From: Chiloscyllium plagiosum
Lineage: Eukaryota
Direction of reading: 5' to 3'
Assembly: GCF_004010195.1 (NCBI RefSeq)
Contig: NC_057755.1
Coordinates: 1,787,306-1,851,305 of the forward strand
Length of the DNA: 64,000 bases
The position numbers and the translations under genes were made by a program. The notes under the pieces were generated by a model that had not been told where the DNA came from, made no database searches, and saw only the letters and a program-made list of their open reading frames with translations. Positions 29,517 through 63,736 of the stretch are shown here, piece after piece (the stretch's first letter is position 1; every line of letters starts with the position of its first letter).

Positions 29517-30689
29517 CTGCAAGAGAATTAAAGCAAAAAAGAAGTTACTGATCAAGCATTGTCTGTGGATGAGCCCTGACTGTAAATACTGACAAAAAGA
29601 AAATTGTTGTTCCATGTCATATAAAGTTTAAAGAACATGAAACACACAAACAAATAATTTGAAGATGAATCATTTAGAGGTTTCCAGATATGAAGGGAAG
29701 AACATGAGAAGTAGATTGCTGACAGATGAATGGTCATTTCGTGAATATTGTTTTGGGCTCAGCAGTGGTTGATGATATTTCCTTTATAAGTTATTCAGAC
29801 TTACTAGAGTTCCCCATAATACCAGAACATCACACTAGAATAACTGGGATCAGTAAAACTAAGAAGAGTAGACAACTAACACATTCATTGATAACAGAAT
29901 TACTGTATTCCTTTTCGGAGCCTGCACAGATCATATTGTTTCCAGAATTGTAAAATCACGCTGTATGAACAATATCACAGGGTATTTGATCGCTCCACCG
30001 TGTCCAGCAATTGAGGTCCGCCATAATAATAATGAACAAATGATCGGGCATTGAATCCCTACCTCATGTAATGTATTGAATATTCTGGCTATCTGATCTA
30101 TGAAGACATTCTGCAGTGAATCCAACCACCGTGTCCCAGGTTAGATACCAACCACAATCAGAAATATTTCAACATTTGAGAACTATCCAAGTTTGTACAG
30201 CAAAGTCTTCACCCAAATATATATATACAGCATTGGTCTTTGCAAATTTCAGTTTCAGTAACCACACTTGATGTGAAATTAATAAAACGTTCCGATCTGA
30301 TGTTAGGGCTCACGCACGAAGCTCCTCTCCTAGGCTCTCGCCTTGGCGATAGTGATCACCCTCTCAGACTTGGTGTGCACAGTGGAGATTGAAAGCCTCA
30401 TGATTTAAACAGCTTTGTCCATGGATCACCAGAATGATGCAGAAAAGACGACCATGTGGCCCGTTGAGTTTGATATGATCCTCCAAAGACCAAGCAGCCA
30501 ATACCACTCCCGTTGGCAGGTTGCTTTTTTAAATCATGGCAGTTAAAGAAAAATGTGTTAATTCCACACAGACGGCAGCACAAGACTGAAATTAAACTCC
30601 GGCCTCTGGCACTGTGAGGCAGGAATGCTAACCATTGTGTCACAGTGCCACTCTTTACACATGTTAATTCAGGCGAATGTTACAGATTG

Positions 30690-31045
30690 TGGAAGACGAT
30701 GGCCTTATGGTCTTATCACCACACTGTTAACTCAGAAACTAAGATAATATTCTGAGAAGCTATGGCCGACATTCACAATGGCAGATGTCGGAATTACATT
30801 TAAAATACAAATATGGGATTAACAATCTAATGACGGCGATGAAATTGTCATCAAGTGTCTGGAAAAATAGCCATATCGATCATTGATATCCTTTAGGGAA
30901 GGTATTCTCTCATCCTTACCTGCTCAGACCTATATGTGACTCCAGACTCAGAATAATCTAGTTGACTCTTACTTACCTTCTGTGCAATTAGGGAAGGGTT
31001 GTAAGTGTTGGTCAACCCAGTGATACCCACATCCTTTTACTGATT
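30690..31045 (+). mobile_element. Decayed tRNA-derived SINE with L2-like tail, in the GPCR intron
   Basis: cctttagggaagg...ccttacctg...atgtgactccagac...gttgactcttact...gcaattaggga; its duplicate lies at about 62370-63140 (-), split by a CR1. Confidence 0.7.
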
Positions 31046-31469
31046 AAGAGAAAGTGGAGCTCCCTGTGTACAGCCAACTCCCCAGTGCACATGACTGCTC
31101 CCTTTTTAGACCATTCCGTGGGATTAGATACACCTGCACTGAGTACATTGTCACAAATATGAAATGAACTACTCCAGACTCAATCGTGTTTCGAAGATTC
31201 AAAGTTGTTACCTGGAGTAGAGAAGTTCAAACTACCTACTAGCACCCAGCACTAACAACTGCGGCAAACAGAGCTGTACCTACGGCTTTGTGACCAGCAG
31301 GAGTTGGGAAATTCAGGTAACTCAGCAAAATAGCTATGAGCAAGCACCCAGCCTTTTGCGCTGAACATTTATCCTCCTCTCTGCTCTATGGCACGTTTTC
31401 TTGAACAATAACCGCCGCTTACATTCAGAGATACCCCCTTGCAGATTTGGGAATCGTGATTATTTTTAA

Positions 31470-32560
31470 ATGCACACATGGAATGTGAGTTTAGTGGGTC
31501 GGGCAGTGTACATTATCTAGCTCCATGTGCTCTTCATTATAACATTGGAGATCTACCTTTGCAATCATCTACATTCCTTGGGGTGGAGGAAAAACCACAC
31601 TGATTTTGGGAGAGTGTTGTAGAATTTGAACCCAGCAAGAATGATGCACTAACAGTACATTTCCGAATCAGAATGACATCTGGCTTGAAAAGGAACTTGT
31701 ATGTGATTACATTTCTATGCATCTTATGATCTCGTTGTCGAGGTGCTGGAGGTCATGGGTTTGCGAAATGCTGCTGAAACAGACTTGGAGTTCCATCCTG
31801 TGAAAGGTGTATTTTGTTCATCACGCATGTTATTAATGAAGGTAATGAGTATTCATTGTGATGCTGTGCACACTGATGAAGTAGCTGTTTGTCTTGCAAA
31901 ATGTGGAGCTTCGTGAGTGTTGTACTCAGTGTGGCATTTGAGTCGCTCTCAGCCAGATGCACGGAGAGAATTCCATCCTACCCGTGAGCCATGCTGTCTG
32001 GATGATGCACATGGATATTAGGGACAGGCGGGTTATTTACTGCTACAGTAATCAGAGTGTCTGATATATTCCTGTGACTATAACACTTGCAAGGTTGGAC
32101 GAGGTAATCCTCCTGTCAATAGTTGACCCAGGTTGTTGACAGTCGTGCATTCAGTGTTTGTAATGTCATAGCAAGCCAATGGAAGACTGGCAGTTTATCA
32201 CTTTCTGAGATTTTTTTTCTTGGTACTTGTGGTACGCCAATGATATTTGTCAATTAACACCCTCCTGGATGTTGCATATAGAAACAGATTTCTTCAATAC
32301 CTACTGAGTCATAGATAGTGCTGATCATTGTGCAATCATAAGCAAGCATCTCTAACTTCGAAATTACGATGGGAGAAATGGCATTGATGAGGCATCTGCA
32401 GAGTTGGGGCCGAGCTCATGGTGCTGAAGAATTCCTGCAGAGATGAACAACAACTGCGATGACTGGCCTATAACAGCCGGGACAATCTCCACTTGTAGTC
32501 AGGATGAAAACGAAGACAGTTGTAATCTCATTGACTCAAGATTTTTGATGGCTCCTTATT
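31470..32560 (-). mobile_element. Decayed L2/CR1-clade LINE 3' portion in the GPCR intron
   Basis: Reverse complement aligns with 59110-61900 (shared tctgcaggaattcttca and ctcacattccatg). Confidence 0.7.
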
Positions 32561-33992
32561 GTGAACCTCTGCTCATAATTTATATGTTGAAGAACTGAAT
32601 ATTTCTTTTCAAGAATTGAAGTTTAATTGTAAAAATAGGCGCAATTAATTGAGGAACTGATAATCAATGCTTCTGTAAATTCAAGTCAAACAATGCTGAG
32701 CTTGGTGGACAGGGGATTTAACATATGATTGTGTTGGAAGGTCAGAGGTAATGGTACAAAAAGCATGCAACGTGTTCCAGAGTATGGGCTTCCAGTAGTG
32801 TCAGAATATTTGTCATTGTCACACTAAAAGAAGAGAAATGTTCACAATGAGAAGAGAAATGCTCACCATTCTGGAAATTGAATTTCTTAGCTTTGTTAAG
32901 ATGTTTAGAGACTAGATAGGACTTTGTCATACAAATGTGGAAATGATATGGGAGAAGCTTGCATTGTATATTGAAGTACCATGTTAAATATTCTGTATTC
33001 TGGTTTGATATTTCTGTGCAATAAACTTCAATGATTGATTATTAGCTTGATTGTTAGCCATAGTCATTATATTGCAAGTAATAAATATTGTTATAAGTTG
33101 AAACAGTCATGTTTTTTCATTCGGATTAGAGTTTTTTATTTTTATATGTTGCCTTAAAACTGACTAATGTACGTTCTTTTTCAAAGCCTGCTCCTCCCAA
33201 GGTGGATGCACACCACAAAGCTAAAGGTAGCGATCTCTGCAAAATTAACTCTGCAAAGATTATGCATTAGAGATTAAACATTGTTAGTCTTAATGGAACC
33301 AGAAACAAATGTGAAACCATAATAACATTTCCAGCTCTATATTCATGCTTGCTGACGTAATTAGTGTAGCCATGTATCACAACTTCTCTTAAACTTGCTA
33401 GAAGATTAGTTAGTACCAAAAATGTTATTTACATTAATACAAAGAGTCTATAGAGCATTTTATTGAAATAGCATTATCGCTCCGCCATTTTCAGTTAATG
33501 AAAAATATCACATCTGTTTATCCCAATGGCACATTTCCCTTTGTAGACTTTGTATCAAACATTTACAATCAGCTTGCGAAGATTTTCCCATTTGCAATTC
33601 AGTGTATATTTGCAAACTACAATAATAGCTTCAGCAGTGGACAGAACAGAAATGAGGAACGTGGAATGAAGCACCACGTGTTTTATGTCGTCATGGTCTT
33701 CGTCACCACTTTGGTAAGATATTCCATTTCATTCAGTTCCACACAAGCAGGTAAATTCTATCATTAGGGATACTCTGCCTTGCACAAGACAACTGAGGTA
33801 AGTTGTTCCACTCAGATTAGTAACTCTTAGTCAATGTAATTTTACTTTGAGAGATGTTCCATAACACGAGCACACTGTGGTTACTTGTTCCACTTTGGCT
33901 CGAACCCACATTTAGTAAAATTATTAACAATCATATAGTGTAAGTAATTAGGATTTTGCAGATATGTTAACAGAATTTGCTAAAAGACTTAC

Positions 33993-34049
33993 CAGAAATA
34001 CCAATAATGACAAGAATGGTGCCAGACAGCTTTGCCTTGGAAGATGCAT
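33993..34049 (-). pseudogene. GPR139-like: GPR139-like coding exon 1 (frameshifted), partner of exon 2 at 29516
   Basis: ggttgtttcataaacaacaacATGCATCTTCCAAGG...ACCATTCTTGTCATTATTGGTATTTCTG|gtaagt aligns with 52716-52809. It is 57 nt rather than 67 nt, so the TILVIIGIS-G frame is out of phase with the ATG. Intron 33992-29517. Confidence 0.85.
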
Positions 34050-34640
34050 GTTGTTGTTTATGAAACAACCGTTCCCTTCCTGCTGCTGGCAACCTATCAG
34101 AATTGGAGAATTCTTTCATAATTTGAGCAAACATATTTTTAAATATTATGTGGCATCTTCACTAGGAAAACTTCAATTCACCTTGAATTTGTTTTCTTTT
34201 AAAAAGAGACATTGCAACAACAGGTTTATTTTAATAATGTCGCCTCATTGAGATTTTCGTCTCTAATTAAGTACAAAAAAGACTGGATATATCTTATCCT
34301 GTTAGGTCTCAATGTCAATTCCAATTTGCCTTCAAACAAGAACATGATTTCCATCATTCTGATCAATATCTAAACACCTCATTGCAGTGATGACCTTCTT
34401 TCTGATGAAGCAATTCAGACTTTCAATACCTCATGTTGTAGACGTCCTCCAGACCTGTTCAGGTAAACACTGTATCCCATTGCTTCTCTTGTCAATTCAG
34501 TTGTACAACTCATTTGGGAAATTCTATCTGTAGTCGAGCACACCAATAGTGAACCTAAAGGTGACAAACAACAAGTGGAACTTACACTAATTTATATTTT
34601 CTCAAAACAACGTATGGACAGAACTTTACCTTCAGGATTC
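34050..34640 (-). promoter_or_regulatory. Upstream/promoter region of the GPR139-like pseudogene
   Basis: Colinear homology with 52110-52736 (+), including the exact 19-mer attaaaataaacctgttgt (34235-34217 vs 52539-52557). Confidence 0.6.
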
Positions 34641-36190
34641 TAGAATGACAGAATCGTATCGATCAGAAGAGGCCGTTCAGTCCATCATGATTGTTTCGCC
34701 CCAGACTCTTGAAGGTTATGACATTTCACGTTTTCATCCAAGTAGTTTTTAAGGCTGTGAGGTTTCACATCTTATCTGGCATTCCACCCAGAACAGTGCA
34801 GCCTTCTGTCATCCCCAGTGAGAAGACATTTCTCCATGCTGCCTCGAAACGTCCAGCCTTTCAGCTTAAAATAATGCATCGTTGTTATGACCCTTCGACT
34901 AAGGGGAGCAATTCATTTATATTCACCCATTCCACGCTACTCATAGTCTTACACATCCCGATCTCTTCTCTAAAGAAAGTACTCTGAGCTTATGAAGACT
35001 CTATCTTCATTGGTAAATTGCTACACACAAAGCAACATTATGGGTAATCTCCTGTGCATTCCCTGTAATACAGTCACATCCTTTTCATGGTGTTGTGACC
35101 ACAAGTGCAAATAATACTCTACCTGTGGCCTAACCAAATTTCTATAGACCTTGGGATCTTGGTGTCCATGTACACAGATCTCTGAAAGTTGCCACCCAGG
35201 TAAATAGTGCGGTGAGGAAGGCATATGGCGTACTGGCTTTTATTGGTAGAGGAATTGAGTTCCGGAGTCCTGAGGTCATGATGCAGTTGTATAAGACTCT
35301 GGTACGGCCGCATCTGGAATATTGTGTGCAGTTTTGGTCGCCATACTATAGGAAGGATGTGGAGGCATTGGAACGGGTGCAGAGGAGGTTTACCAGGATG
35401 TTGCCTGGTATGAAAGGAAAATCGTATGAGGAAAGACTGAGGCACTTGGGGCTGTTTTCACTAGAGAAAAGAAGGTTTAGGGGTGACTTGATTGAGGTGT
35501 ACAAGATGATTAGGGGGTTAGATAGGGTCGACAGTATGAACCTTTTCCCGCGTATTGAGTCGGGTATTACAAGGGGGCATAGCTTTAAATTAAGGGGGGG
35601 TAGATATAGGACTGATGTTAGGGGTAGGTTCTTCACTCAGCGAGTCGTTAGTTCATGGAATGCCCTGCCAGTAACAGTGGTGGACTCTCCCTCTTTATGG
35701 GCATTTAAGAGGGCATTGGATAGGTATATGGAGGATAGTGGGTTAGTGTAGTTTAGGTGGGCTTGGATCGGCGCAACATCGAGGGCCCAAGGGCCTGTAC
35801 TGCGCTGTATTCTTCTATGTTCTATGTTCTATGTTCTACCTCCAAAAGGATCTTCCTGTTGTTATAATCTAAGCCTCCACGATAAAGTCATGTGTCCTGC
35901 TTGCCTCCTTACCAACCACATTTACCAGTCCTGCCCTGTTTAGCGATCTGTTGGCAATGACGTCAAGATGTTTCTATTCCTCTGACTTTCCTAGTGTGCT
36001 GCCATTCTTTCGTTGTCTTAGGATTTTAGCCAAAGTGCATCACCTCACAATTACCAGGATTCAATTTCACCTGCCGCTGATTTGACCATCTGACCAAACT
36101 GTTTGTATCTATTTAGCCCAATACCATAATCCTCACTGTCAAGCAATTAGTCAATACTTGTGTCATCATGAAACCTACATATCAACCTCC
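34640..36190 (-). mobile_element. Old CR1 3' portion upstream of the GPCR pseudogene
   Basis: YRNLVRPQVEYYLHLWS..KDVTVLQGMHRR, FHDDT, CEVMHFG on the minus strand; split by a younger CR1. Confidence 0.8.
35145..35838 (+). mobile_element. Young 5'-truncated CR1 with open ORF2 C-terminus
   Basis: 179-aa uninterrupted ORF (LYKTLVRPHLEYCVQFWSPYYRKDVEALERVQRRFTRMLPG...FFTQRVVSSWNALP) and a perfect (TTCTATG)n tail. Confidence 0.95.
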
Positions 36191-36359
36191 ATCTCACTGC
36201 TACACAGTGCTTGGGGAAAGGGTTTTGGCGGGCAAAGTCAAGAGAACAATGTTAGAAGAGTGGAAAAGCTAAGGACTTAAGTCAGGTGGAGGGGGTGGCA
36301 AAGTTAGGGGGCGCTATTCATCCCAGCTGAAATTTAACTCGAAGTGGAGAGTTGCAATA

Positions 36360-37920
36360 ATTTTGGATGCAGTTTTGCTCGCTGAGCTGAAAGGTTCATT
36401 TCAAGACCTTTCATTATCTTACTAGGTAACACCTTCAGTGAACTTTATGCAAAACAATGCTGAAACTTGCGGCTTTCTATTTATATGTATGGGTTTTTTT
36501 GGGTTGGTGATGTATTTTCCTTAGGTGATGTTATTTCCTGTGGTCACATCTTGTTCCTTTTCTCAGGGGTGACAGATGGGTGTGTCGATAGAGTTCTGTT
36601 TGGAATGCCATGCTTATAGGGATTCTCGTGCACGTCTTTGTTTGGCTTGTCCAAGGATGAAAGTATTGTCCCAGTTGAAGTGGTGTCCTTCCTCTTTCGT
36701 ATGTGAGGATGCTAATGAGAGAAGATCATATCTTCTTGTGGCTAGTTGGTGTTCATGTATCCTGGTGGCTAGTTTTCTGACTGTTTGTCCAATGTATTAC
36801 TTGTTACAGTCCTTGCAAAGGTATTTTAAAAATGACGTTAGTATTGCTCATTGTCTGTATAGAGTCTTTCGAGTTCATTAGCTGCTGTTTTAGTGTGTTG
36901 GTGGGATTGTGGGATAACATGCTTCCAAGGGGTCTGAGTAGTCTGGCAGTCATTTCCGATATGTCTTTGATGTAAGAAAGAGTGGCTAGGGTTTCTGGAC
37001 TTGTTTTGTCTGCTTGTTTAGGTTTGTTGTTGAGAAATCGGCTCACTGTGTTCATTGGGTACCCATTCTTTTTGAACACATGGTATAGGTGATTTTCTTC
37101 TGCTCTGCGTAGTTCCTTTGTGCTGCAGTGTAAGTTGGCTCGTTGAAGTAATGTTCTGATACAAGTTCGTTTGTGGATGTTGGGATGATTGCTTCTGTAG
37201 TTCAATATTTGGTCTGTATGTGTTGTTTTTCTGTAGACGCTGGTTTGAAGTTCCCCAATGGCTGTTCACTCTAATATGACATCTAGGAATGGCAGTTTGT
37301 TGTTGTTTTACTCCTCTTTAATGACTTTTATGCCAGTAAGGGTATTATTGTTGATTTTGAAGGTTTCCTCGAACTTGTTTCTTTTAGTGATGACAAAGTT
37401 GTCATCCACGTAGCGGACCCTGAGTTTGGTTTGGATGGTTGGCAGAGCTGTTTGTTCAAGTCTCTGCATTGCTGCCTCTGCTAAGAACCCTGATATCGGA
37501 GTTCCATTGGTGTTTTATTGGTATGTCTGTACATTTTGTTGTTGAAGGTCAAGTGGGTGGTAAGGCATAGATCCACTAGCTTGATGATATTCTGCTTGTT
37601 GATGAAGTTAGTGGTGTTCGGTGTCTGTGTCTTTGGGTCTGCTCATAGTGGAGTCAGTGTTTCCTTGGCCAGGTTAATGTTGATTGAGGTAAACAGGGCT
37701 GTTACATCAAAGGAGACCATTATTTCATCCTCTTCTATCTTAGTGTCTTTAATGGTCTTCAGGAATTCATGGGTGGAGTGGATGGAGTGGCATGAACCTT
37801 CTACTAAGTGTTTTAGACTTTCGTGTAGCTCCTTGGCCAATCCGTACGTTGGTGCTCCAGCTAGCGAGACTATGGGTCTGACAGGGTCTCCTGGTTTGTG
37901 AATTTTTGGGTAATCCATCG
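36360..37920 (-). mobile_element. Penelope element (RT + GIY-YIG + pLTR), decayed
   Basis: PKIHKPGDPVRPIVS, MVSFDVTALFTSI, VRYVDD, LNYRSNHPNIHKRTCIRTL, NVIFKIP; pLTR tail at 36360-36445. Confidence 0.93.
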
Positions 37921-37924
37921 AAAC

Positions 37925-38465: not shown

Positions 38466-38599
38466 TTCTTTGACCCACACCCAGATATCTGTTATTCAAG
38501 TACAGACACTGCTAATCCCTCAATTAGATTTCAGTCTCTAACTTACACGCAGGTGACGCTAACTCTGCATAAAAACCACCATACACCACTTAATATGAC

Positions 38600-39345: not shown

Positions 39346-39349
39346 CTAA

Positions 39350-39815
39350 TACTGACTCAATCTGTTACCCTATGTGAACCCACCCAAACATTTCGATTAG
39401 AGTCCATTCTTGAACTCCCTGCCAGGTGTATGTTATTTCATGCATAAATGTCCCTGAACCCCTCGATTAGATTCCAGTCTGTACCTCATTCCCACTTATC
39501 TGTTATTCTATGCATGGGCATCCCCGAAACCCTCAATTAGATTACAGCATGTAGCTCACTATAGTATCTGTTGTTCAATATGCACACCATCTGAATCCGC
39601 TGATTAGATTCAGTCTGTGATAAACTCCCGGGTATCTGTTATTCTCTATATAAATCACTGTAAACCCCATGATTAGATTCGCGTCTGTAACCCACATCTG
39701 GATATCTGTTATTCATTACATAACCCACGCCAAAACCCTCGATTAGATTGCTGCCTGTAATTTACTCCCAGGTATCTGTTATTCTATGTGTAAATGAACC
39801 TGAACTCCGACAGAT
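39350..39815. repeat. Degenerate ~70-bp tandem repeat, about 6.5 units
   Basis: gattag core at 39395, 39465, 39535, 39602, 39671, 39741; unit approximately ccctcgattagattccagtctgtaactcactcccgggtatctgttattctatatataaaccaccctgaac. Confidence 0.85.
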
Positions 39816-41499: not shown

Positions 41500-41865
41500 C
41501 TTTCTCCTCTGATTTCTCCCCTCTCGTATCCGTTTCGTCTGTGTATAAATCGCTCAATCCCCTCAATTTGATTGCAGTATGTAGCTTACGCCTGTGTATT
41601 TGTTGTTCTGCATATAATCGACCCGATACCCTTGATAAAATTCCAATCTGTAACTGACTTCCATTTATAAGAGACTCTGTTACATTTACTACCTCAAACT
41701 TTTGATTAGATTCTAGCCTGTAACTCACTTCCGGGTGTCTATTATTCTGTAAAAAAAAAACCTCGAACCCCTTGATTCGATCCCAGACTGTAACTCACTC
41801 CAGTGTATCTGTTATTCCAACTCTGAAGCACCAAGAACACCTCGATTAAATGTCAGTCTGTGAAT
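41500..41865. repeat. Second patch of the ~70-bp repeat, about 5 units (smaller patches at 38470-38580 and 42100-42240)
   Basis: Cores about 70 bp apart near 41564, 41634, 41704, 41774, 41844. Confidence 0.8.
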
Positions 41866-43022
41866 GCGCTCCCTGTCATTTTAAGATCACATTCCTAACT
41901 CAATCTCCTGGCAAGAACCTTATCACTTGTCCTCATAATTGCTGACTCTACTCTCATGTTAACTTTCTGATGTTTATGTACAAGATTATTCAACCACCGC
42001 CCACCACCCCACCCCCACAACATGATGGAATGTAGCAAGTTCTGTCACACTCCGTAACATAGTATCATAGTGAACATCTCAAAGCCTACAATGATATTCC
42101 ACCTTGGAATTCAGTCCTGGTTATCTGTTATTCTCCCCATAAAGCACTCCAAAACCTCTTAATTCGATTCCAGTATGCAACTCTCTCCTGGGTATCTGTT
42201 AGTCTAGATATAAACCACCCTGAACCCCTCGATTAGATTATAATCAGTAAATGAATCCCTTTGTTCAGCTCATGTTCCGAATAAAACCGCCTAGCACAAA
42301 CAGTCAATGTATCACTTGTCCTCCTATCTGCTGGTACTACCATCATGTTAACTTTCTGATGTTTATGAACAAGTTCAGATAAACCCTCGGACAGTAACGT
42401 TTCAGAATTTCTCACCAGTTTGAACTCAAACATTCTGCTTTTTCTATTCTTCCTGCAAATCACGTTCCATTATATTTTGTTCCACCTGCCAAAGTCTTAA
42501 ATAAAATTCACAAAACACTGACAGCAAAGTGAAAGCTATGACGGGATGTAACAAACTCTGTTACACTCAGTACCTTGATGTTGCAGTTTAATAATATCCA
42601 GTCAGAAACGTTCCCTCCCTCAGGGACAAAACCTTCCTGGGTCTCGAAGTGGGGATTGGGAAGAGAATGGGGATTTTTATTCTGTCATTGAGTTAGTTTG
42701 GAAATCCGTGCTGCACATGGATATTTCTCCACATTATATTCCATCTGAAAATAACTTGCCTACTCAGTGAAGCTGGCCATATTGAGTCGCAGCCTCTTTG
42801 GTCGTCCCCATATATTTCTGTCCCACCCAACATGGGTCTTGTCAGGGACCCTGGAAATATCACTTAGAAACTTCGAAGTTAGGAGCAGGAGTAGGCCATT
42901 CGGCCCCTCGAGCACGCTCTGTCATTCAATACGACCAACGTTTATCATCGAACTCTATTCCCGCATCCCACCCTCCCCCTCATGTCGCCATGGTTCATTT
43001 GGACACAAGTAACAAAGCAAGA

Positions 43023-43032
43023 TTGTGTGTGT

Positions 43033-51270: not shown

Positions 51271-51539
51271 TCAAAAGCTACTGAAATTTCCTAAATGTGA
51301 TTTAGAAAGTAGCTATTTGTGCGAGATTTCCATGGTATTTATCATGTACTGGTGAAGGAACAGAATTCAAGTTTTAAACATTATGTTATATGACTTGGTG
51401 CAGAAATTGTTGGAGTTGGCTGAGATGTCTGAAAACATTTTTCAAACCTTTATGCTATGTTTCCAATATGCTGGGTATCCTTCAGGTACTGTTGTCAGAG
51501 GTGGTAAAATTTCTAAAAGTCAATTCGTCTCTTTTTATT

Positions 51540-52112
51540 CTGCAAAGGCAGAAGGACAGGTTAAGAGGGCAGTTAAAAAGGCATTTCTTTCGGAGTCGAG
51601 ACGTAGATTATAAGAGCAAGGAGATACTGTTACTGCTGCACTCAACTTTATTAGACCACAGTTGGTGGATGCAGTTCTGGCGACTTCACAACAGGAAGGA
51701 TGTGATTGCACTAGAATAAAGGAGATTCACGATGATGTACTTGGTGTGTAGCTATTTAGCTGTGAAGAGCGAGGTTTGGTAAGTTTGGAATGTTTTCATT
51801 ACAGCAGAGATCAGGCTACACATGACTGTGAACGGATGGATATGGTGGACAGATAGCAGTTGTTCCCATTTTTCATAGGTGCCATAATTTCAAGCTGAAA
51901 GGTTTGGAGGAGCCATGAGGAATAGTCTTCTCACTAAGAGGATGGAAGGGGCCTATTGAGACAGTAAACCACAAAACATTTACAAAGAAAAAAAATATAG
52001 CTATCGGTTAATTGCTGGAAAGTAGTATTAAAATGTATTTAGTCTAATTTTGGCAGGACAAACACAATGGGCCAAAGGCCTCTTGTGTTCTATGTTTTTT
52101 CTGCAATTCTAG
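51540..52112 (+). mobile_element. Old CR1 3' portion upstream of the plus-strand GPCR exon 1
   Basis: YKSKEILLLLHSTL..MQFWRLHNRKDVIALE; tail caattctagaat at the same position relative to the ATG as the CR1 at 34640. Confidence 0.75.
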
Positions 52113-52633
52113 AATTCTGATGTTAAGGTAATGAATTAGTTTATTTTACTCTTTTTTTGAGGAAATATCCCCCGGTGTAAGTTTCAGCCGTTGTCAGTAT
52201 CAGCTTCTTGGTTCTGTATTGTTTGCTTGTTCACAGATGAAATTTCCCAAACAAGTTGAAAAACTGAATTAACAAGGAAAGCAGTGGTGTAATACAATGC
52301 AGGAGAACAGCTTTAAACATAAAATATTGAACATCTGAGTAGCCTCAGCAAAATGATGGTCATTACTGAAAAGAATATCAAAAGATATCAGTATTGATGG
52401 TTCTCATAGTGTGTAAAAAAATGCAAGTATCGTTGTGTGAAGACAAATCATGATTAACATTTGAGACCGAAGAGGAACAGCTTGATCCAGCCTTTGGGAG
52501 TATTCAGACACAGTCTTAAATCTCAAACATATCACTTCATTAAAATAAACCTGTTGTAATCTGTTTGCTCAGAAATGTATTTTCAGAAATAAGGAAAGTG
52601 TAATCATATATTCCCAGTGGAGATATCACACAA

Positions 52634-52640
52634 TATAAAA
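52634..52640 (+). promoter_or_regulatory. Candidate TATA box (TATAAAA)
   Basis: About 100 nt upstream of the ATG at 52737. Confidence 0.5.
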
Positions 52641-52736
52641 CAGCGTGAAACTGTCTCTTCTCCAATTAAAAGTTAATTTTCCAATTACGTGAGATTTCTC
52701 CAAAAGGAAGGGCGAGGCTGTTTCACAAACAACAAA

Positions 52737-52803
52737 ATGTATTTTCCAAGAAGAATGATCTTAAAAGTATACTACAGCATCCTTCCCATTATTATTATTC
52801 CAG
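52737..52803 (+). CDS. GPR139-like: GPR139/GPR142-like GPCR, coding exon 1 (exon 2 predicted beyond 64000)
   Basis: 67-nt exon MYFPRRMILKVYYSILPIIIIP-G with consensus donor CAG|GTAAGT, phase 1, matching the phase of exon 2 at 29516; flanks homologous to the 34049 copy. Confidence 0.82.
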
Positions 52804-52949
52804 GTAAGTGTAGCAACAGCTTAAGTTATATAAATTTCTGTATTTCTACTTCATGCCTGTTAATTACTGTATTTCCATTTAGCAAGACATCTACCAATAC
52901 CTACCGATAGCGTCGTCACTTACTGACGTCAAAGTAAATAGTTTGCCAA

Positions 52950-53688
52950 TTCGGAGACTCCTCAGTAATGTGTAGCAGTGTCTGTTCCTTTAGACTGTGC
53001 GGAATGGATTTGCACTGTGGCCACATCGACAGAGTTTGGTGAAGAACTGGCCCTGGTTGGTCAGTAAAATGTTTAACAAACCATACATACTCTCTCTGTG
53101 CAGTTCAAAGCCTGCGATTTTGTAACAACTCACTTCTTAGTGACATCTGGTGTTTTCCATTCCTTGATGTAAAGATACTTTGTTGGTGGATCTTGCTCTG
53201 ACAACTTGGTTGAAATGGGCGCCCAGACATTACATGTGTAAAGGTTGTGTTAAGCAGGTCGTTATGGAGTAATAAGTGAGTGTCAGTACAAATGGTGTCG
53301 ACTATCTTATGTGTTTTTGTCAGTCAGTGAATATATTGAACCATGAACTTTGTGAGGACCGATTGCTTGGAGTTGTGTTGAGTGCAGAGTTCCAATTATG
53401 ACGTGTATTATTGTATTATTTGATTGTCGACAACGGCAAGTGAGTTATGCCATTTCTAAAATGATGCAAAATATTGTGGTGCAGAGTTTAATTGGACAAA
53501 CACTGAGATCGGAGTCGTGCACTGCCACAGAGATTCAAATAACTGTCCATCAGGAATTGTTCTCCCTTACGCTTTGGTGTTGTTATCCTTTGATGTTCTC
53601 TGAACATTAATGGTTTATGTGTATTTTCTTCCAGTTGCATTCATTGGGATTATCATTTTGTCTTTCACTATCAAACTTTAGTTATTTA

Positions 53689-53756
<68 letters not shown>

Positions 53757-55060
53757 TGTGCTTTTGGTTTCACTGTGAGACCGCAACTTTGTGAAATCTG
53801 TTTTTGCACCTGACCCATAGAGCTCAGAATGATGGAGATTGGTGGTACAGCAGGACTTTTCACTGATGAAAGAGAAATTGGTTTGGGGTGACTGATGTGA
53901 CGTTTAAGACATTTCATATTGTTTTACTGCTCTGAAACTCCAATCGTGATCAAGGACATGCAGCCTTATGGAAGGAAAGTCAGCCCTGCTGTTGTGAATT
54001 CCATTTGACCTGGTGTTCAACTTTGAGGGAATCGGTGAGTTAGAAACTATATCAGAGTCACCAGCTGATTCATAGTCCATCAGCTGCGCTCTGCTAAAAG
54101 AACTTGAATCTCCTGATGACCCTGATGGAAATTATGCTCTTTGCCTCATCACGTGGGGCATCATTGCACCCATTGCCACTCAGAATATGTATCTGAACAG
54201 TGATTATGATTTATGCCTCAGGGACAGATTTATTATACTTTATGTCTGTAGTTCAAGATTGTGCTGGGCATTTTTTGCTTATATTGTTCTTCGAAATGTT
54301 GTTACATATTCCGAGACTCTGGATCATTGAAAAGCAGGTGTGATTGTGTATGACTGCTCGGCTGTGTTCACTTTGCGGGAAGTCATTCATGAGTAGAACA
54401 TGGGTTGGTTGAGGATGGTCATTCACGAAACGGACCCCAAACTGGACAGTTCATTATGTTCAGGTCTGCTGGTTGGATGTTGGTTCTGAGGAAGGATCTT
54501 TCCACTTTCTATCCACAGATGCTGCCAGACCTGCTGAGCTTTAGCAGGAAGTTCTGCTTTTTTTCCCTGATTTAAAGCATCCACAATTCTTTCAGGCATT
54601 GTTTGGCATTGTTCGTGTTGTTTCATCGCAGTTTCAAGGCGAGATCGTCATTGAAGCCACATTGACGTTCTCAGTTATCTCCGACTGTGTTGTGTCTATT
54701 GTGGGATGGAAAGTATGGGAGTGGGAGTGACATAATACCAAAGGAACTTTTCGCCAGCCGCACTTGGTCGTTTATGAAGGTTTCCAGTAATGATATCACC
54801 AGACTGAACATTCCCACAATGTATTCTAAAATTCAGGGCTGCTACATCAACACTGCTGGCTGCGACATATCAGGCACAACGTGTTTTACATCAGGGCAGT
54901 AACATCGTCGTTCAAATTGTTTGATGAAATACTGTTCTGTTTCTTCAATCCAAAATGGTTCACTTGGAAACAATGCTGTTGATGTGCCCGGTGTCAAGAT
55001 ACTGATCAAACTTAACTGGTTTGCTAATAAGCCTTTGTACGATTTAAAGAACATTCAAGA
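52950..55060 (-). mobile_element. Very old Gypsy RNase H-integrase remnant in the intron
   Basis: Minus-strand fragments in pol order: KFDQYL (about 55010), FHQGHQEIQ (about 54125, H2C2 region), VMSGRP (about 53225). Heavily decayed. Confidence 0.4.
53681..53756. repeat. (ATT)n microsatellite
   Basis: Direct reading. Confidence 0.98.
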
Positions 55061-55189
55061 AGATATGTACAATATCATGAAATTTCTACAGTGCAGACAG
55101 AGGCAATTCTGCCTATCGGGTCTGCACTGACCCTCAAAGGAGCATCCCACTCAAAGGCCTCAAAGGCATAATCTGCATTTACCATGGCT

Positions 55190-55737
55190 ACTCCTTGGTT
55201 AACTCACCTCCTGACTCCCAAATCCTATCCACCATCTACAAGGAACAAGTCATAGAATGTCTCAAGGGGCATCATGGAATATAACCCAACCAACCTGGCT
55301 GAGTCTCTCTCCAACACTCAAGAACTTTGACGTCATCAGAACAAACCAGATCACTTGATTGACATCAAATCTACACATGTCCACTCTCTTAACTACTGAC
55401 ACGCAAAAGTTGCACTGTTTACCATCGAATAGACAATGCCTCCGACAGCCAGGACAACAAATATCTGACAGGACAAGAGCAGTAGATACATGAGAACACC
55501 ATCATCTGAAAGTTCCCCTCCACGACACTCTCCATTTTGATTTGAAAATATATCGGGCCTCTTTCAGTGTCAGTCGATCAAAATGATGAAATTCCCTTCT
55601 TTATGTCATTGTGGGTCTGCGTACAGCAGGTAATTACAGCTGTTCAGGAATGTGCCTCAGCAACACCTCTCAAAAGCAACTAAGGATGGGTAATAAATTC
55701 AGGCCAGCGATGTCGACATCCCACGAATGAATAAAAA
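55190..55737 (+). mobile_element. L2/CR1-clade LINE 3' end
   Basis: cacctcctgactcccaaatcctatccaccatctacaagg...taaggatgggtaataaat...catcccacgaatgaataaaaa. Confidence 0.75.
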
Positions 55738-56674
55738 GTAAATATTGTGCACAGTGAAGATAACTCTAATCGGAATTTCTGATCCAGCGTTTTCAGGTTT
55801 CTGTAAATGCAGAATTGTAGTAAATGTATACCACTGAAAGGAGAATAATCGTGAGCTCAACAATTATTATGACTGGGAAAATCCTTGACTGTAGAACTGC
55901 ATTACATGTAGATCAATAGCCTGAGAGGAACTCTCGATTCCAGTGGTGATGTAATTCAGTGAGCATCTTTCAATTACAATTTTACCAAGTGTGGGTTCCA
56001 AGTAAATGGTGAATAACTAACCCAGTGCCCAAGTGTTACTGGAAACATCTCCTAAAATGAAATTATACTAATTGGATACGACTAACTGGACGTGAACAAT
56101 TTACCACAGTAACCACGTAAGGAAGAATATCTCTGATTATGGAATTTCACTGTTTGTAGGGAACTAAAAGAAATGCAATACCTAGCCACAATTAGGGCCA
56201 TAATGATCTTGAAATTTGTGGTGTTTCAGTTATACTGCAATCATCATTTCTGTTCTGTCCAGTGATGGAGCTGTTAATTTGTAATTTATCGTTTGTAAAT
56301 ATACATTAGATTTCAATGGAAAAACCTATGCAGGTGGTTGTATATGTCTGATGCTACGTTTATGAGTTAAATTGCCCCAATGGAGATAAGTAAATGTGAG
56401 ACATTTTTTAATAAAGGGAAAGTAGCAAAACAATAAGGGTTATTCAATAAAATACCCTAAGTACATGTTATGTTTCCTCAAACAATATTAATAATATTTT
56501 AGTGACTGATTAATCTTCCAGAAAGTTTTGGACAAGTTGTCGAACATAGCTACTCTATTATATGATCTCGGCATTAATAAGAAAGATATGGAGCTGGCAA
56601 CGTTGACGCAATTTTACATCTACATCTGATTAGATTTCAATTAACAATTTTCAAAACTATAATTCATGCCATTT

Positions 56675-57189
56675 TGTTATGGATCAGGCGGGACATCCCA
56701 CGAATATTTTAAAAGATAGCTCGACCCTAACTTTTGCTTATTTTAAAGGCAGATTAGAAATGGGATTTCCCGATAAAGAAGCAGTGCCCCGAAAGCTAGT
56801 ACCTCCAAATATTAACCTGTTGGACTATAATCTAGTATCGTATGATGTTTAGTATTGGAAAACCCAACCGACCCAATACATAACTTAACTAATCAATTGT
56901 TTCAATACCGTAACATTCCATAAGCACGCTGCTTAAGCAGAAAGTTAAATTAATTTCAAACACAGATTTTTACAGGCAGGAGAGATCGACATCCAGACGG
57001 AGATTTCGGAGAAAGTCAGATGAATCCTTTACAGAAGCTTGCAACACTTTTCGACTCCAACGTCTTGGCAATGGAAGAACTGGCCTCCCGCCTTCCATTG
57101 TTAAACTAGATTCTTCTGCACTTCTGCTTTCATGAATAATCTTCAAAAAAAGACAAAAATGACCTTGTTAAAGTGACAACATCATCACA
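56675..57189 (-). mobile_element. Solo LTR
   Basis: TG...CA ends (tgttatgg / catcatcaca); absent at the homologous intron position near 33270; flanks attt/cttt. Confidence 0.7.
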
Positions 57190-58006
57190 CTTTCCACAGT
57201 TAGTTCTCCAGAAATCGTTGCCCATCACTTTGCGGCATGTGACCTCAGTGATGAGGAAAGAGTTTTGGTGAGGATTATAAATCTGTCTTGATTAAGGCAA
57301 TATAAAAAAGTACAACCTATAAATGGTATTTCAAATGTGTTTAAACCCGAAATCAGTGTTCTAACTAAATGAACTGTCGTTGTGATCTCCCTTATTCATG
57401 GAAATATACTTTCTATATTTTGTATTGCTCAATTCTTTGAAGTTTCATGCCCCACATTTAGATGTATTCACTTTCTCTCAGCGAATTTCAAGATAGAGAG
57501 GTAATGCTTTTTCAGACGTAGTGCATTAAATATAGAAATGTATGACTGATTTATTTTAGCTTCAACATAATATTATTCTGCCCGCTCTTGGAATACTTTA
57601 TGTCAGTAATACAGCTCATAACTCCCAGTTCCATAATTGTAGCATTTAGCTTCCTTTAGAGTGTAACGACAGATATTTTGATTTTGTCAGAAGAGCAAAC
57701 TCTGTCGCACATTGTCGATTTTTTTTGGTGCACAGACCTTTCAACACAACTACATGTAATTTCTAAAGTCTTAACTCAGGATTGTTAGATTTGAATTTAC
57801 AGTAGCATGAATCATACTTATCTCAATCAGGTGCTTTTAAAAATGTATTTTCATTGCAATTCAGAAAAGTTCAGCTCTTAAACGTATACATTGTAAATAC
57901 ATATTCACAATAAGGAGCCATCAAAAAGTTGGAATCAATGAGATTAAAACCTTGTTTCATCTTGGCTACAGGTGACGAAGATTATGACTTTTGGAAATCA
58001 ATCATC

Positions 58007-58661
58007 TGTTATGAACCAGGGCAAGCCCTTCAAAACATTTCAAGAAGGTAACCCAGACCTAACGTGCCTAATTGTTTTAAGCAGATGTAAGGTGGATATT
58101 CAAGGAGTGATACAGCTGGTCAAACCACTCAGTTTTAATCAAATCAGAATTTATTTACAGACTACCAAATTAAACAATAGCACAGGACAACAGAATTTAA
58201 TAACAACTACTTGAAAACCCGACTGATACGATATCTCCTGCAACTTAACAGAGAGCTGTTCCAATGTCACACAACGTACAAAAAGACACCTCATTGACAA
58301 AAAAGATATATTCAAGCGCAGGTTCTTACTGGATAGACAGATTGCAGAGGGGATCAGCCAGGGGTCATTGGCTAAAACATGGAACCTCTTTCTGCCCAGC
58401 AGCATCTCGGGGTCCTCAGCTAAAATTAAACTAAACCAGAAAAAAAACTGATCTGGGAGATCTAGCCATTCCCCTTTCATTACAACTGTTTTAAAATAAA
58501 CAGAAAACCCAGTTTGCCCGATTGTTCCCTTTGGTAGTCTTTGTTAGCCATACGGGAATTGGCCTACAGCCAGACAAATTGGAACCTCTACCTTTTATAA
58601 CCCCTTTTGAAAAAAGAAAACAAAGACAACATAACGTCGTTAAAGGAGCATCATCATCACA
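58007..58661 (-). mobile_element. Solo LTR
   Basis: tgttatgaacc...catcatcaca ends; near-TSD catc/cgtc; same family as 56675-57189 and 63737-64000. Confidence 0.75.
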
Positions 58662-58689
58662 CGTCTCAGCCATCATACAATGCGTCATA

Positions 58690-59110
58690 ATTTCATAGAT
58701 CTGTATGGCATGGAAATGTACGCTTTGGTCCAACTTGCACGCGCAACCAGATAGCCCACATTAATTAAGTCCCATTTTCCAGCATCTGGTCGTTATCCAT
58801 CTAAAACTTTCCAATTCATATATACCTAACGAGAGGCCTTTTAAATATTGTAATTGCACAAGCCTAAATGACATATTCTAGGAGATCATTCCATGCACCC
58901 ACCACCTTCTTCGTGAAAACAGTTGCCCCTTAGATCCTTTTTATTTATTTATCCTTGCAACTAAAACATATGCCATCCTGTTTTGAGCTCCCACACCCGG
59001 GCAAAAGACCTTAGCTATTCATCCTATCCAAGATCTTCAAGACTTTATAAAGGTAACCCCTAAGCCTCCCATGCTCCAGGGAAAATAGCCCCAGCTTATT
59101 GAATTTCTCC
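58690..59110 (-). mobile_element. CR1 3' fragment
   Basis: Reverse complement reads LGLFSLEHGRLRG..FFTKKVVGAWNDL and a 3' UTR. Confidence 0.8.
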
Positions 59111-59479
59111 TTCAAGTGCTTCTGCAGGAATTCTTCACGCTTGTGTCCTTAAACCCAAAATGTGCAACTACCTTATCAATTCCCTTCCCTCCATAGTAAT
59201 TTCCAAATTTCAGAGATTTGCTCGTTATTGCACAATGTTCAGCACCATTTACTCATTAGATCACGAAGAGATCTGTGTCCATATACGATGAGATGACCAC
59301 CAGCTCAGGCTGATAATTGATAAGTACCGTTCGCATCCAGAAGCACCAGACAATGACCATCTCAAAACGAGACTATCTGCGTGGCTCCTATTAGCATACT
59401 AAGATCAAAGTTTGTGCGAAGATTTGTAGCTCGGGTGCTCGTTGTTGTGGTTCTGTTCGCCGAGCTGGAAATTTTTGTT

Positions 59480-59519
59480 GCAAACGTTTCGTCCCCTGGC
59501 TAGGCGACATCATCAGTGC
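59480..59519 (-). ncRNA. Minimal type I hammerhead ribozyme motif (inverted copy)
   Basis: Reverse complement GCA-CTGATGA-tgtcgcctagccaggggac-GAAAC-GTT-TGC. Confidence 0.7.
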
Positions 59520-61125
59520 TTGGGAGCCTCCTGCGAAGCGCTTCTTTGATGTTTCCTCCGGTGTTTATGGTGGTCAGTCCCTGCCGCTTCCGGTTGTCAG
59601 TTTCAGCTGTCCGCTGTAGTGGTTGGTATATTGGGTCCAGGTCGATGTGTTTGTTGATGGAGTTTGTGGATGAATGCCATGCCTGTAGGAATTGCCTGGC
59701 TGTTCTCTGTCTGGCTTGCCCTATGATAGTAGTGTTGTCCCAGTCGAATTCATGTTGCTTGTTGTCTGTGTGTGTGGCTATTAAGGATAGCTGGTCGTGT
59801 CGTTTCGTGGCTAGTTGATGTTCATGTATGCGGATTGTTAGCTGTCTTCCTGTTTGTCCTATATAAGAAGAAACCATGATATCATTCGACGTGACGGCAC
59901 TGCTCACTTCGATTGACAAAGCCCTAGCCAGAGAAACAATAGCCAACCTACTGGACATACAGAACAGAAAACAGGACGCTGAACCTATCAACAAAGACGG
60001 CATACTTAAACTACTGGACTTGTGCCTCACAACACACTTCAAATTCAACAACCAGATATATGAACAAATCAACGGAACACCCATGGGATCACCAATCTCG
60101 GGACTCATAGCAGAGGCAGTTATGCAAAGGTTAGAACAAACAGTCCAACCACAAATTCAACCCAAACTCTGGGTCAGATATGTCGATGACACGTTCGTAA
60201 TCATTAAAACACGGAAATAGAAAACACACACGTTCATCAACGCCACACTCACAGGAACCCGATTCACGAGAGAAGAAGAAAGGGATAGCCAACTCCCATT
60301 CCTAGACGTGATGGTACAGAGAAGACTGAACGGAGAATTCACCACAAGGGTATACAGGAAAGCCACACACACAGACCAAGTCCTAAACTATGAAAGTAAC
60401 CACCCCAACACACACAAACGAAGCTGCATCAGGACACTATTAAAAAGGACCACAACACACTGCAGTACACCAGAACTGCAAAAAGAAGAAGAGGAACTCC
60501 TACACAAGGTATTCGCCAAAAACGGATACCCGCGCAACTTCATCAACAGATGCCTAAGAGAAAGACCACGGAATGAGGACATACCACAACCAAAAGGACT
60601 AGCCACACTACCATACATCAGAACTGACAGCCAGACTACTGCGAACCCTAGGACTCATAACGGCACACAAACCAACAGCCACGCTCAGACAACAACTCAC
60701 CAGAACGAAGGACCCGATACCCAACATGAGCAAGACGAATGTAGTGTACAAAATACCATGCAAGGACTGCACTAAACACTATTTAGGACAAACAGGAAGA
60801 CAGCTAACAATTCGCATACATGAACATCAATTAGCCACGAAACGACACGACCAGCTATCCTTAATAGCCACACACACAGACAACAAGCAACATGAATTCG
60901 ACTGGGACAACATTACTATCATAGGGCAAGCCAGACAGAGAACAGCCAGGCAATTCCTACAGGCATGGCATTCATCCACAAACTCCATCAACAAACACAT
61001 CGACCTGGACCCAATATACCAACCACTACAGCGGACAGCTGAAACTGACAACCGGAAGCGGCAGGGACTGACCACTATAAACACCGGAGGAAACATCAAA
61101 GAAGCGCTTCGCAGGAGGCTCCCAA

Positions 61126-61165
61126 GCACTGATGATGTCGCCTAGCCAGGGGACGAAACGTTTGC
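61126..61165 (+). ncRNA. Minimal type I hammerhead ribozyme motif in the Penelope pLTR
   Basis: Core CTGATGA (61129-61135) and GAAA (61155-61158), stem II gtc.cct/agg.gac, palindromic AACGTT stem III, stem I GCA/TGC. Minimal hammerheads are a known feature of Penelope pLTRs. Confidence 0.72.
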
Positions 61166-62514
61166 AACAAAAACTTCCAGCTCGGCGAACAGAACCACAG
61201 CAGCATACTATGGTATTACCATAATTGAATGCACGACTATTAACAACCTGTGCTGACCACTGACAAGTAAATGACCTTGTCCAGGTTTATAACTGATGGG
61301 GAAACAGGAGTATATCAGGTATGGTGATTGTTGCAGCAATTAGCTCCCCACCTACCTCACCAATCCATGTCCACAATCCAGAAATCGTAGCTCAGAGGTA
61401 GAATGGAATGCTGTCCGAATGTCTGGAAAACTGCAGCTCCAACAACACTCAAAATCTTAACATTGGGCAGGACAAACCGCCGGCTGATTAGCGTTACGAT
61501 CACCACATTCAGCACCCACTCCCTTCACCAACAATAGCATGACCGATAATGAATACAATTCTGTGAAAATGCAAAACGTAACATGCCAAGTCTCTTTCGA
61601 CATCCACTCAGAACAACATGACATCAGGCTCTTAGAACAACAAGGGCAGCAGATGCATGGAAAGGCCATCATATGCAAGTTCGCTTTCAAGCCTGATTTT
61701 ATTCTGAGCTTGAAATGCAGCATTGCTCTGTAACAGTTGCAGTGTAAACATTTTACAGCTCTCCCCCCAAAACACAGGGTTTTCCTGCACATCAGATAAT
61801 GCAGATGTTCAAAAATGCTACTCTCCAGCACGATCACAAAGACGATTAGAATTAGACACCGAGTGTTGGCCTCGCCAGCAAAGCTCACATTCCATGAGTA
61901 CACTTCAAAATAATCCTTATTTCCACATCTGAAAGAAAACATCTCTGAACCTGAGGAGTGCTTATTGACCAAATCAGTGTTCCACATCGTAGAGAACCAG
62001 CCAAATGTCGAAGGGGAAAGGAGAGAAGCTTGGTATCGAGGACTTGCCTGATTCAAGGTGCCAGCTATCCATGGCAAAGCTCATGTTGCCTATTTTAATG
62101 AATTTACCATCTATTACTGGTCACAAAACCAACAGACAGATCCTTATGCCTCATTTGTCTTTGGTCGATGTAATGGTGATTTCAATTTCGGAAAACTACA
62201 TTAAATCAAGCGGAGTATCTCTTAGCTTCTAAATTGGGGCAATTTTCGGAGTTGCATGTTTGTGACAATTAAGGTGATGTGAGGATTTTCAGTCATAAGG
62301 AGTTACCTAAAAATAAGAGCAGTCATCTGTACTGGAGTGTTGGTTGTGCATGGGGAAATCTCCATTTTCATTTATTTATTCAACTGATGCTGGTGTCACT
62401 GGCTAATCCAGCAATACTGCCCATTCCTAATTGCCCAGAGGGCAATTAAGAATCACCAGATTGTCATCGCTCTGGAGTCACACGAAGGCCATATCAGGTA
62501 AGGATGACACATTA

Positions 62515-62900
62515 GACCACGAGACCATAAGGCTATAAGACACAAGAGCAGAAGTGAGGCTATTCATTCCGTCAAGTCTGCTCCACTATTCAGTCATAGC
62601 TAATAAGTTTCGTAACCCTATTCTCCCGCTTTCTCCTTGTAACCCTTGAAAATCTTGATACGCCAGAACGTATCTATCTCAGTCTTAAATATCTCTTCCT
62701 TTTGTGGCAATGAATTCAATAGGTTCTCCATTCTCTGGCTGAAGAATTTTCTCCTTATTTCCGTTCTGAATGATTTTCCCAAGTATGTTCTCTGGTGTCC
62801 TAATCTCACATACCAATATGTAAATCTTCCAAACAACCACTCTCCCAGGCCATTCAGAATTCTGCAAGTTTCAATTAGATTGCCCCTCTAATCGTGTATA
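62515..62900 (-). mobile_element. CR1 3' fragment inserted in a SINE
   Basis: SFRTEIRRKFFSQRMENLLNSLPQK with a (tcttatgg)-like tail; absent from the duplicate SINE at 30690-31045. Confidence 0.8.
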
Positions 62901-63736
62901 ACTCAGAATCCTTAAGAATTCTTCATGATTATCTTCTCTAAAGGACATTCGTGAATACGATTGTCATCAAATGTTGGGAAAAAAAACACAACTTCATGGT
63001 TATCAATAATGCAGATTAAAATGCAGATTTTTAATAGAATTCAAATTTCACCATCTGTCCCGGTGCCCTTTGAACCCAAATCCCAACAACATTAACTCAG
63101 TCTGAAAAATAGCAATAAATCCATTAAGGCCATCATCTCCCTAATCTTTAGCATTGGCCTGAATTCGAATAATCAACCTCTGATCCCAAGCAATATTCCA
63201 ATACTTGGGTCTCCAGCAACAAGCTATGGTACAATTCTGGTGCTCTATGCAGAAAATGTGGGTTGAACTACGGGGATTTCTCACTCCAGCATGTTCTCTG
63301 AATCTGGGAGGCAGGTCTCCAAGCACTAGTAGAAGGTTGAGGAGAGGAGCTTGGGTGCATGACTCTGGACATCAGGCAGGAGATTTTGCTTCATTCAAGA
63401 TAACATGCCTAATTTCTCAACTGTGGATTTTCAATGACCAATGCTGCACGGATTTAGACTTTATCTGGATGAGAGCTGTGGTATACAATCTTGAACATGT
63501 AGGAGGAGCCCTGACTAAATGTTGAAGTTTTCCTGATTGCGGTAGCAATCTAACCTGTGAAATAACATAGCTCAGAATGTCAGGATGTTCAATCCCACAA
63601 GCTCAGAATTTTATCATTTGATTTTTATCTCTTACCATGGAATGTGTCCATTCCCAGTCATTGTGAAGTGATTCCAAGCCCTGTGCTGTAGCTCAGGTGG
63701 AGTGGATGTCCAATTCTAGAGGTACCTTCGGTCATG

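Follow-up and report, generated by a model that had tools for sequence, protein, structure and literature searches.

The 64,000-nucleotide stretch of Chiloscyllium plagiosum DNA analysed here (NCBI RefSeq assembly GCF_004010195.1, contig NC_057755.1, positions 1,787,306 to 1,851,305 of the forward strand; hereafter the window, with coordinates counted from its first letter) is quite probably part of a birth-and-death cluster of two-exon GPR139-like genes, in which three units, which we call A, B and C, would have arisen through copying at the DNA level. A sequence-only reading of the window had proposed an ancient inverted duplication of one whole G-protein-coupled receptor (GPCR) gene unit, giving rise to A on the minus strand and B on the plus strand.

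The homology between these two copies is real. Namely, copy A (35,140-29,941, minus) and copy B (51,644-63,720, plus) align over ten colinear blocks with a total of 4,451 ungapped columns, at 67.2% identity and a Kimura two-parameter (K2P) distance of 0.44, which suits the word ancient, and all ten blocks outscore the best of 20 shuffles by 2.6 to 14 times. Self-BLAST of the window finds the same colinear anti-diagonal from 30,134/63,560 to 35,083/51,696, and nhmmer stretches it to 29,939/63,722 and 35,140/51,644, with a weak extra piece at 35,932-35,844/51,553-51,631. Six of the seven anchors that had been quoted for this reverse-complement homology were located by string search within about 5 bp, including the exact 19-mer at 34,235/52,539, while the seventh (33,265/57,195) corresponds to a 125-column block at 33,258-33,134/57,190-57,315. 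The homologous stretch comprises the end of an upstream long interspersed element (LINE), the promoter, a short exon 1 and most of a single intron. The anti-diagonal extends outside repeats and is linked to GPCR exons. It had been described as lying in non-repeat DNA, and this is correct for the majority of the blocks: in run X3, which comes from another study and where single-copy contigs have a depth of about 15, the bins at 29,670-30,089, 31,140-32,189 and 33,030-33,869 show depths of 6-68. However, the bins at 30,510-31,139, which resemble a short interspersed element (SINE), reach depths of 10,000-62,000 in the same run, and part of an old LINE (32,190-32,399) is high-copy as well. The longest exact match between A and B is 24 bp, a length equalled in 8.7% of simulations at 67% identity, and because this is within chance, we see no sign of recent gene conversion between the copies. 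The match itself (32,565-32,542/57,904-57,927) falls in low-copy intron DNA and could be a regulatory motif.

The duplicated unit belongs to a class A GPCR gene, as had been proposed and as both the exon anatomy and a hidden Markov model (HMM) of the family confirm. The gene has a short exon 1, a single phase-1 intron and a long exon 2. In copy A, on the minus strand, the coding part of exon 1 occupies 33,993..34,049 and carries a 10-nt gap relative to B, which removes the ATG from the reading frame of the donor site; the phase-1 intron (29,517..33,992, 4,476 bp) has GT..AG ends, and exon 2 (28,627..29,516) runs from the first transmembrane segment (TM1) to the C-terminus. The promoter and 5' region of A (34,050..34,646) is homologous to 52,106-52,736 in B at about 69% identity, and its outer 170 bp are also homologous to fragment C. 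In copy B, on the plus strand, the coding part of exon 1 (52,737..52,803) has an ATG, 22 open codons and a phase-1 GT donor at 52,804, and the intron fills the rest of the window (52,804..64,000, at least 11.2 kb), swollen by about 7.3 kb of insertions. The intron sits just before position N1.50 in both copies (donor 33,992 and acceptor 29,517 in A, donor 52,804 in B), and it is probably present in other members of the family, since the N-termini of the database models diverge at exactly this residue. The head-to-head arrangement of A and B is borne out; the spacer of about 15 kb given for it is correct as the distance between the outer limits of the homology, but the two ATGs lie 18.7 kb apart.

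An HMM built from seven shark and ray proteins matches exon 2 of copy A at 29,523-28,639 in three successive frames, with independent E-values of 1e-7, 6e-18 and 9e-36. Neither this model nor a richer one finds a second exon 2 in the window. Exon 2 of copy B would be expected at 64.8 kb or beyond, outside the window, because approximately 420 bp of the A intron are still unmatched where an element of B resembling a long terminal repeat (LTR) starts at 63,737. Consequently, the idea that a whole gene had been duplicated within the interval needs correction: only exon 1 and the intron lie inside it, the main exon of A lies outside it, and that of B lies beyond the window. The family itself was reached through the minus-strand translation from 29,517, whose first named match was a caecilian 'probable GPR139' (E 2e-4), leading to the shark and ray proteins. 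None of the 25 open frames of at least 120 residues in the window is GPCR-like, and a regular-expression scan for textbook GPCR motifs gave nothing useful, in a family that lacks Pro at both 6.50 and 7.50. The single-frame translation of copy A has no significant match in Pfam or the PDB, and its mixed-frame translation misses 7tm_1.

Copy A is clearly a dead gene, a point which the sequence-only reading had overlooked, along with the erosion of exon 1 in copy B. Over both exons, A carries three frameshifts and five stops: in exon 2, the frame shifts near 29,405 and 29,072, and stops stand at 29,161, 29,146, 28,845, 28,692 and 28,662, the one at 28,845 in the codon for W6.48, while R3.50 is replaced by L. 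Of 127 conserved columns it retains 79, where the median family member has 124, and its branch in a tree of 71 sequences is 1.12 substitutions per site long. The lesions in exon 2 are not sequencing errors, since contigs of run X3, which stem from a second animal, match 28,626-30,867 with zero differences. A total of 63 RNA reads fall on A, none at 99% identity or above and most on repeats, but they come from about 2% of one single-cell run and are uninformative either way.

Copy B is probably decaying and dead too. Three residues in the TM1 region of its exon 1 are absent from all 50 family members with which it was compared, including an Ile at a position where 46 of the 50 keep Gly, and the exon scores 16.8 against the family profile, where the median member scores 48.5, although the scores of the members are inflated by their having been left in the profile. 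One could argue instead for an asymmetric fate, in which B would be functional and A its decayed twin. This concerns only the status of the genes and would fit either route of duplication, and we regard it as possible but rather doubtful: exon 1 of B does retain its ATG, frame and GT donor, whereas the unusual residues, the low profile score and the approximately 7.3 kb of insertions in the intron speak against it.

The window holds further traces of the same family. Fragment C (20,307..20,981, minus, the same strand as A) consists of the shared LINE end followed by about 170 bp of the same promoter; it is interrupted at a SINE-like repeat, with no exon beyond. K2P distances over the promoter part are 0.31 for C-A, 0.35 for A-B and 0.40 for C-B, and over the LINE part 0.39, 0.40 and 0.41 for the same pairs, suggesting that, as far as such short alignments can tell, all three are about equally distant from one another. 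Remnant D (14,637..14,703, minus) is an exon 1 of the family type, with an ATG, 22 codons and a phase-1 GT donor, eroded and more distant. It scores 21.9 against the profile, the best score in 15 shuffled windows being 10.6, and it aligns with exon 1 of B at 60% over 152 columns (score 2,502 against a shuffled maximum of 2,012). A further candidate exon 1, E (24,026-24,098, plus, with a weak donor at 24,098), was not accepted: its score of 6.2 is below the same shuffled maximum of 10.6, and its DNA is not homologous to that of A, B or D. It could still be another, older remnant. Two ways of extending C were also tried, one joining C and D as a single unit split by a retroelement and the other letting C resume in the intron after a deletion, and neither gave an alignment above shuffles.

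Outside the window, many contigs of run X3 match the exons and promoter of A in short pieces, with a summed depth of 340-2,650 in the peak bins, a quantity that is not a copy number. One 305-bp contig of that run, matching exon 2 of A at 28,733-29,036 with 86% identity, has a depth of about 90 against 12-15 for single-copy sequence, which suggests that a set of nearly identical paralogues exists at other places of the genome. Because of the third fragment and these other paralogous contigs, A and B are better regarded as two survivors of a cluster, not necessarily sisters. In this sense, A, B, fragment C and remnant D point to a birth-and-death receptor cluster.

The repeats in and around the copies are partly shared and partly specific to one copy. 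It should be noted that most of the repeat labels used here (CR1, L2, SINE, LTR) are based on copy number, the form of the ends and the sequence-only reading; Pfam was scanned with 16 open frames and 9 short frames of the window. Upstream of the promoter lies the 3' end of an old LINE, which we take to be CR1-like, as had been suggested before, and whose common origin in the copies was tested. It occupies 34,655..35,140 (minus) in A, where it runs on weakly to about 36,170 past a later insertion, approximately 51,550-52,105 in B and 20,500-20,985 in C. The three ends score 8,965-16,187 with one another and at most 5,598 with the nine other copies in the window, and therefore the insertion is shared. 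In the intron, an old LINE-like repeat (31,400..32,441 in A, minus; 59,121-59,404 and 61,198-61,967 in B) is 65% identical between A and B (752 columns), while its identity to other copies is 57-62%; its L2 label is that of the sequence-only reading, and the short frames scanned gave no Pfam match. A block with a high-copy SINE-like repeat is likewise common to the two introns (30,666..31,107 in A, minus; 62,310-62,507 and 63,024-63,165 in B). The claim that the upstream CR1, the intronic L2 and the SINE are shared and predate the split is thus upheld, and the shared LINE has diverged between the copies as much as its flanks.

The copies have also gained insertions of their own, and those of B add up to the approximately 7.3 kb mentioned above: one composite, a Penelope-like element, three LTR-like pieces related to one another and two that are CR1-like. 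The largest is the 3.1-kb composite (52,866..55,976), which includes (TTA)n, a SINE-like part (54,385-54,591) and a LINE-like part (55,194-55,729). It is followed by a solo-LTR-like insertion (56,676..57,189) with TG..CA ends and 4-bp flanks that, read by eye, differ at one base, and by a second insertion (58,007..59,120) that combines a solo-LTR-like piece (58,007 to about 58,660, again with TG..CA ends and with 4-bp flanks that differ at one base) with a CR1-like one (58,665-59,115). The Penelope-like element (59,405..61,197) lies within the shared intronic LINE and has a reverse transcriptase (RVT_1, E 6e-9) and a GIY-YIG-like frame; its 423-bp inverted arms are 98.3% identical, and it is the youngest insertion in B. 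Another CR1-like piece (62,508..63,023) lies within the shared SINE-like block, and the third LTR-like piece (63,737..64,000), related to the other two and in opposite orientation, leaves the window and ends the visible homology. The list of elements unique to the plus copy, namely three LTRs, a Penelope and two CR1 pieces, was therefore right in what it named but omitted the composite, and copy A has insertions of its own: a CR1-like one (35,141..35,830, plus) that splits the shared LINE in opposite orientation, with an open frame at 35,134-35,751, and a short SINE-like one at about 30,552-30,660.

How might such an arrangement have arisen? We propose that an ancestral unit of about 7 kb, made up of the LINE end, the promoter, the short exon 1, an intron already containing the old LINE and SINE, and exon 2, would have undergone DNA-level copying two or more times, all about equally long ago, to yield A, B and C, and that one of these would have been turned round, whether in the course of the duplication or in a separate inversion afterwards. 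All three would then have drifted without detectable gene conversion, each gaining insertions, with A becoming a pseudogene, C losing everything after the promoter and B eroding in exon 1 and probably dying. The simplest account of the copying itself would be unequal crossing-over between paralogues or repeats, or repeat-mediated recombination, the former being a familiar process in multigene clusters. As for timing, A differs from its orthologue by approximately 6.4% in organism B (300/4,701) and by approximately 8.0% in organism C (426/5,299, not counting one contig of high depth that was taken to be a paralogue), and because these differences are so small, the split between copies A and B would be several times older than those species splits, roughly 5-7 times if rates were even.

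Several observations weigh against this scheme. No breakpoint survives, as the inner homology fades inside the shared LINE and the outer end of B is off the window; exon 2 of B also lies outside, and B may be either intact or missing it. The comparisons with C span only about 150-170 columns outside repeats, which is not enough to put A, B and C in order, and D may be unrelated, as its upstream DNA gives no alignment with A, B or C. Finally, the large number of related proteins reported below is a mixed count.

The best of the alternatives is the single inverted duplication, by fold-back or template switch, in which A and B would be sisters around a 15-kb unduplicated spacer, with C and D as older leftovers. 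The head-to-head geometry and the fact that the whole visible intron is common to A and B over all 4,451 columns both speak for such an event. However, B is no closer to A than C is, the homology fades within the shared LINE without a visible mirrored breakpoint, and the genome contains many other paralogous flanks. For these reasons, we consider the derivation of A and B from each other in one inverted duplication unlikely. Far less probable still is an RNA-based spread of the unit, by read-through (3' transduction) out of the sense LINE that A and B carry about 600 bp ahead of the ATG: the LINE end does lead the unit in all three copies, but both A and B have kept the intron, which shows that the copying did not pass through RNA, neither a poly(A) tail nor a flanking duplication is seen, and the divergence of the LINE between copies equals that of the flanks. 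An assembly artefact, or a chance alignment of dispersed repeats, can hardly be entertained even in a window this rich in repeats, which are included in three of the ten blocks, since an identity of 67% is nowhere near what a collapsed or duplicated read path would give, the low-copy blocks are colinear, run X3 shows zero differences to A over its listed single-copy contigs, and runs of two studies contain 74-98% of the words of the B promoter region. No read was found to span the A-B junction.

The cluster reading draws further weight from the family to which these genes belong. The translation of copy A matched 96 representatives clustered at 50% identity, the closest of which in turn matched 1,969 proteins at E<=1e-30, a count that mixes species and may include mis-predicted models. 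All 120 proteins listed among these matches come from sharks and rays, and for 40 of the 120 (counted by hand) the longest contig is the same 74.5-Mb Heterodontus sequence. In the tree of 71 sequences, for which amphibian proteins were assumed as the root, A nests within the shark and ray radiation, in a clade with Narcine and Mustelus proteins that has a support of 1.0. Each of four intact relatives tested scores above the Pfam cut-off for 7tm_1, and the class A motifs D2.50, D/E-R3.50, P5.50, W6.48, N7.49 and Y7.53 are kept in 85-88 of 88 close members. Across these 88 proteins, the extracellular half varies in each of TM3, TM6 and TM7 (1.45-1.64 bits), whereas the cytoplasmic half is conserved (0.25-0.43 bits). 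This pattern would fit many ligands and one signalling route, a trend that any set of GPCR paralogues shows to some degree. Intact members are most likely ligand-diversified class A receptors with a conserved cytoplasmic signalling face.

The closest relatives of copy A are elasmobranch proteins named 'probable' or 'putative G-protein coupled receptor 139', from Heterodontus francisci, Mustelus asterias, Heptranchias perlo, Cetorhinus maximus, Scyliorhinus torazame, Pristiophorus japonicus and others. When exon 2 of A is translated throughout with X, its identity to the best of them is 42-45%; they share its TM1 start motif and carry Pfam 7tm_1, and exon 1 of B resembles their N-termini. Their names stem from automatic annotation and we found no tested function for them; unlike them, A is a pseudogene. 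Among solved structures, human GPR139 (PDB 7VUG, 9M42) is the best match of the family profile (E 5e-21, 78 bits), ahead of the PrRP and chemokine receptors and with similar TM1, TM3 and TM7 motifs. It is nevertheless remote: a search with a single family member gives no PDB chain at E<=1e-8. In the available part of one report, E108, R244 and N271 are given as anchors of GPR139 agonists (PMC12775434). At the matching columns (E3.32, R6.51 and N7x38) the commonest residues of the 88 members are L/S/I, Y and Y/F/W, respectively, and the anchor residues are not among the six commonest. Judged by these pocket residues, which are not kept, the family is not orthologous to GPR139. Also, GPR139 is described as highly conserved in the part of PMC12208981 available to us, whereas the shark and ray family is multi-copy and variable and does not reach the conservation of a set of GPR139 orthologues. 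It behaves like a birth-and-death receptor repertoire and not like an orthologue set.

A different relationship is seen in the amphibian and sturgeon 'probable GPR139' proteins (P0003-P0023), which are 31-34% identical to shark and ray members. The amphibian ones form one listed cluster per species, with no expansion, unlike the shark and ray family. Distinct from the shark radiation, these proteins may represent its unexpanded sister lineage. They are possibly the GPR210A/B subtypes, which are named near GPR139/142 in bony fishes in a paper whose accessible part does not mention sharks (PMC6504862).

Birth-and-death clusters of GPCR genes are well known from the olfactory, vomeronasal, TAAR and TAS2R receptors. 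Like them, the family considered here shows clustered paralogues in mixed orientation, pseudogenes, fragments, variable extracellular halves and a conserved cytoplasmic face. We found no sequence link from the shark and ray family to any of the four, and sensory expression is likewise without evidence. It is tempting to go one step further and to imagine a large, fast-turnover repertoire of dozens to hundreds of GPR139-like genes per shark or ray genome, gathered under one automatic label and serving combinatorial chemosensory or immune-surveillance detection, an idea that we offer tentatively and think less likely than otherwise. If it were true, the GPCR count of sharks would change, and it could be tested with existing genomes and single-cell data. 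It would also qualify the view, taken from part of PMC8455134, that cartilaginous fishes are relatively poor in GPCRs, and might help to explain their small sets of canonical olfactory receptors, as described in part of PMC11979771.

In the literature searched, we found no account of a GPR139-like expansion in sharks and rays, most subscription papers being outside that literature and supplements possibly listing the family. In particular, no paper was found that combines GPR139 with 'chondrichthy' or 'elasmobranch', the term GPR139 was not found in the accessible portions of the shark genome papers PMC10620051, 10.1101/602136, PMC11979771 and PMC8455134 (for the last, including half of its supplements), and the available part of PMC12208981, which deals with GPR139, does not mention sharks. 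The rearrangement itself is ordinary, as old duplicated, inverted and decaying receptor genes are to be expected in multigene clusters. What the locus offers is a small, clean record of the order of insertions, and a pair of paralogues 18 kb apart that have diverged by a third without visible gene conversion. A very large and seemingly little studied receptor family is a more useful lead than the inversion.

Some minor features of the window complete the picture. Two degraded stretches resembling LTR retroelements lie at 7,800-12,870 and approximately 15,300-19,560 (plus), with gag-, zinc-knuckle- and integrase-like frames recognised by eye, both of them ending in a piece that resembles the LTR at 58,007 at about 70%. 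Other Penelope-like copies occur in the spacer between A and B (36,360-37,600, 66% identical to the element in the B intron) and as a short piece at 9,310-9,641 (82%). The spacer also contains degenerate short-period, satellite-like repeats at 39,385-39,808 and 41,545-42,373, below the threshold of Tandem Repeats Finder, and a 170-residue open frame (46,428-46,940, plus) that looks by eye like the end of a retroelement and has no Pfam match. Finally, a young repeat of about 100 bp is found, at 92-95% identity, at 2,664-2,864 (two copies, as an inverted pair), 7,398-7,492 and 26,043-26,147.

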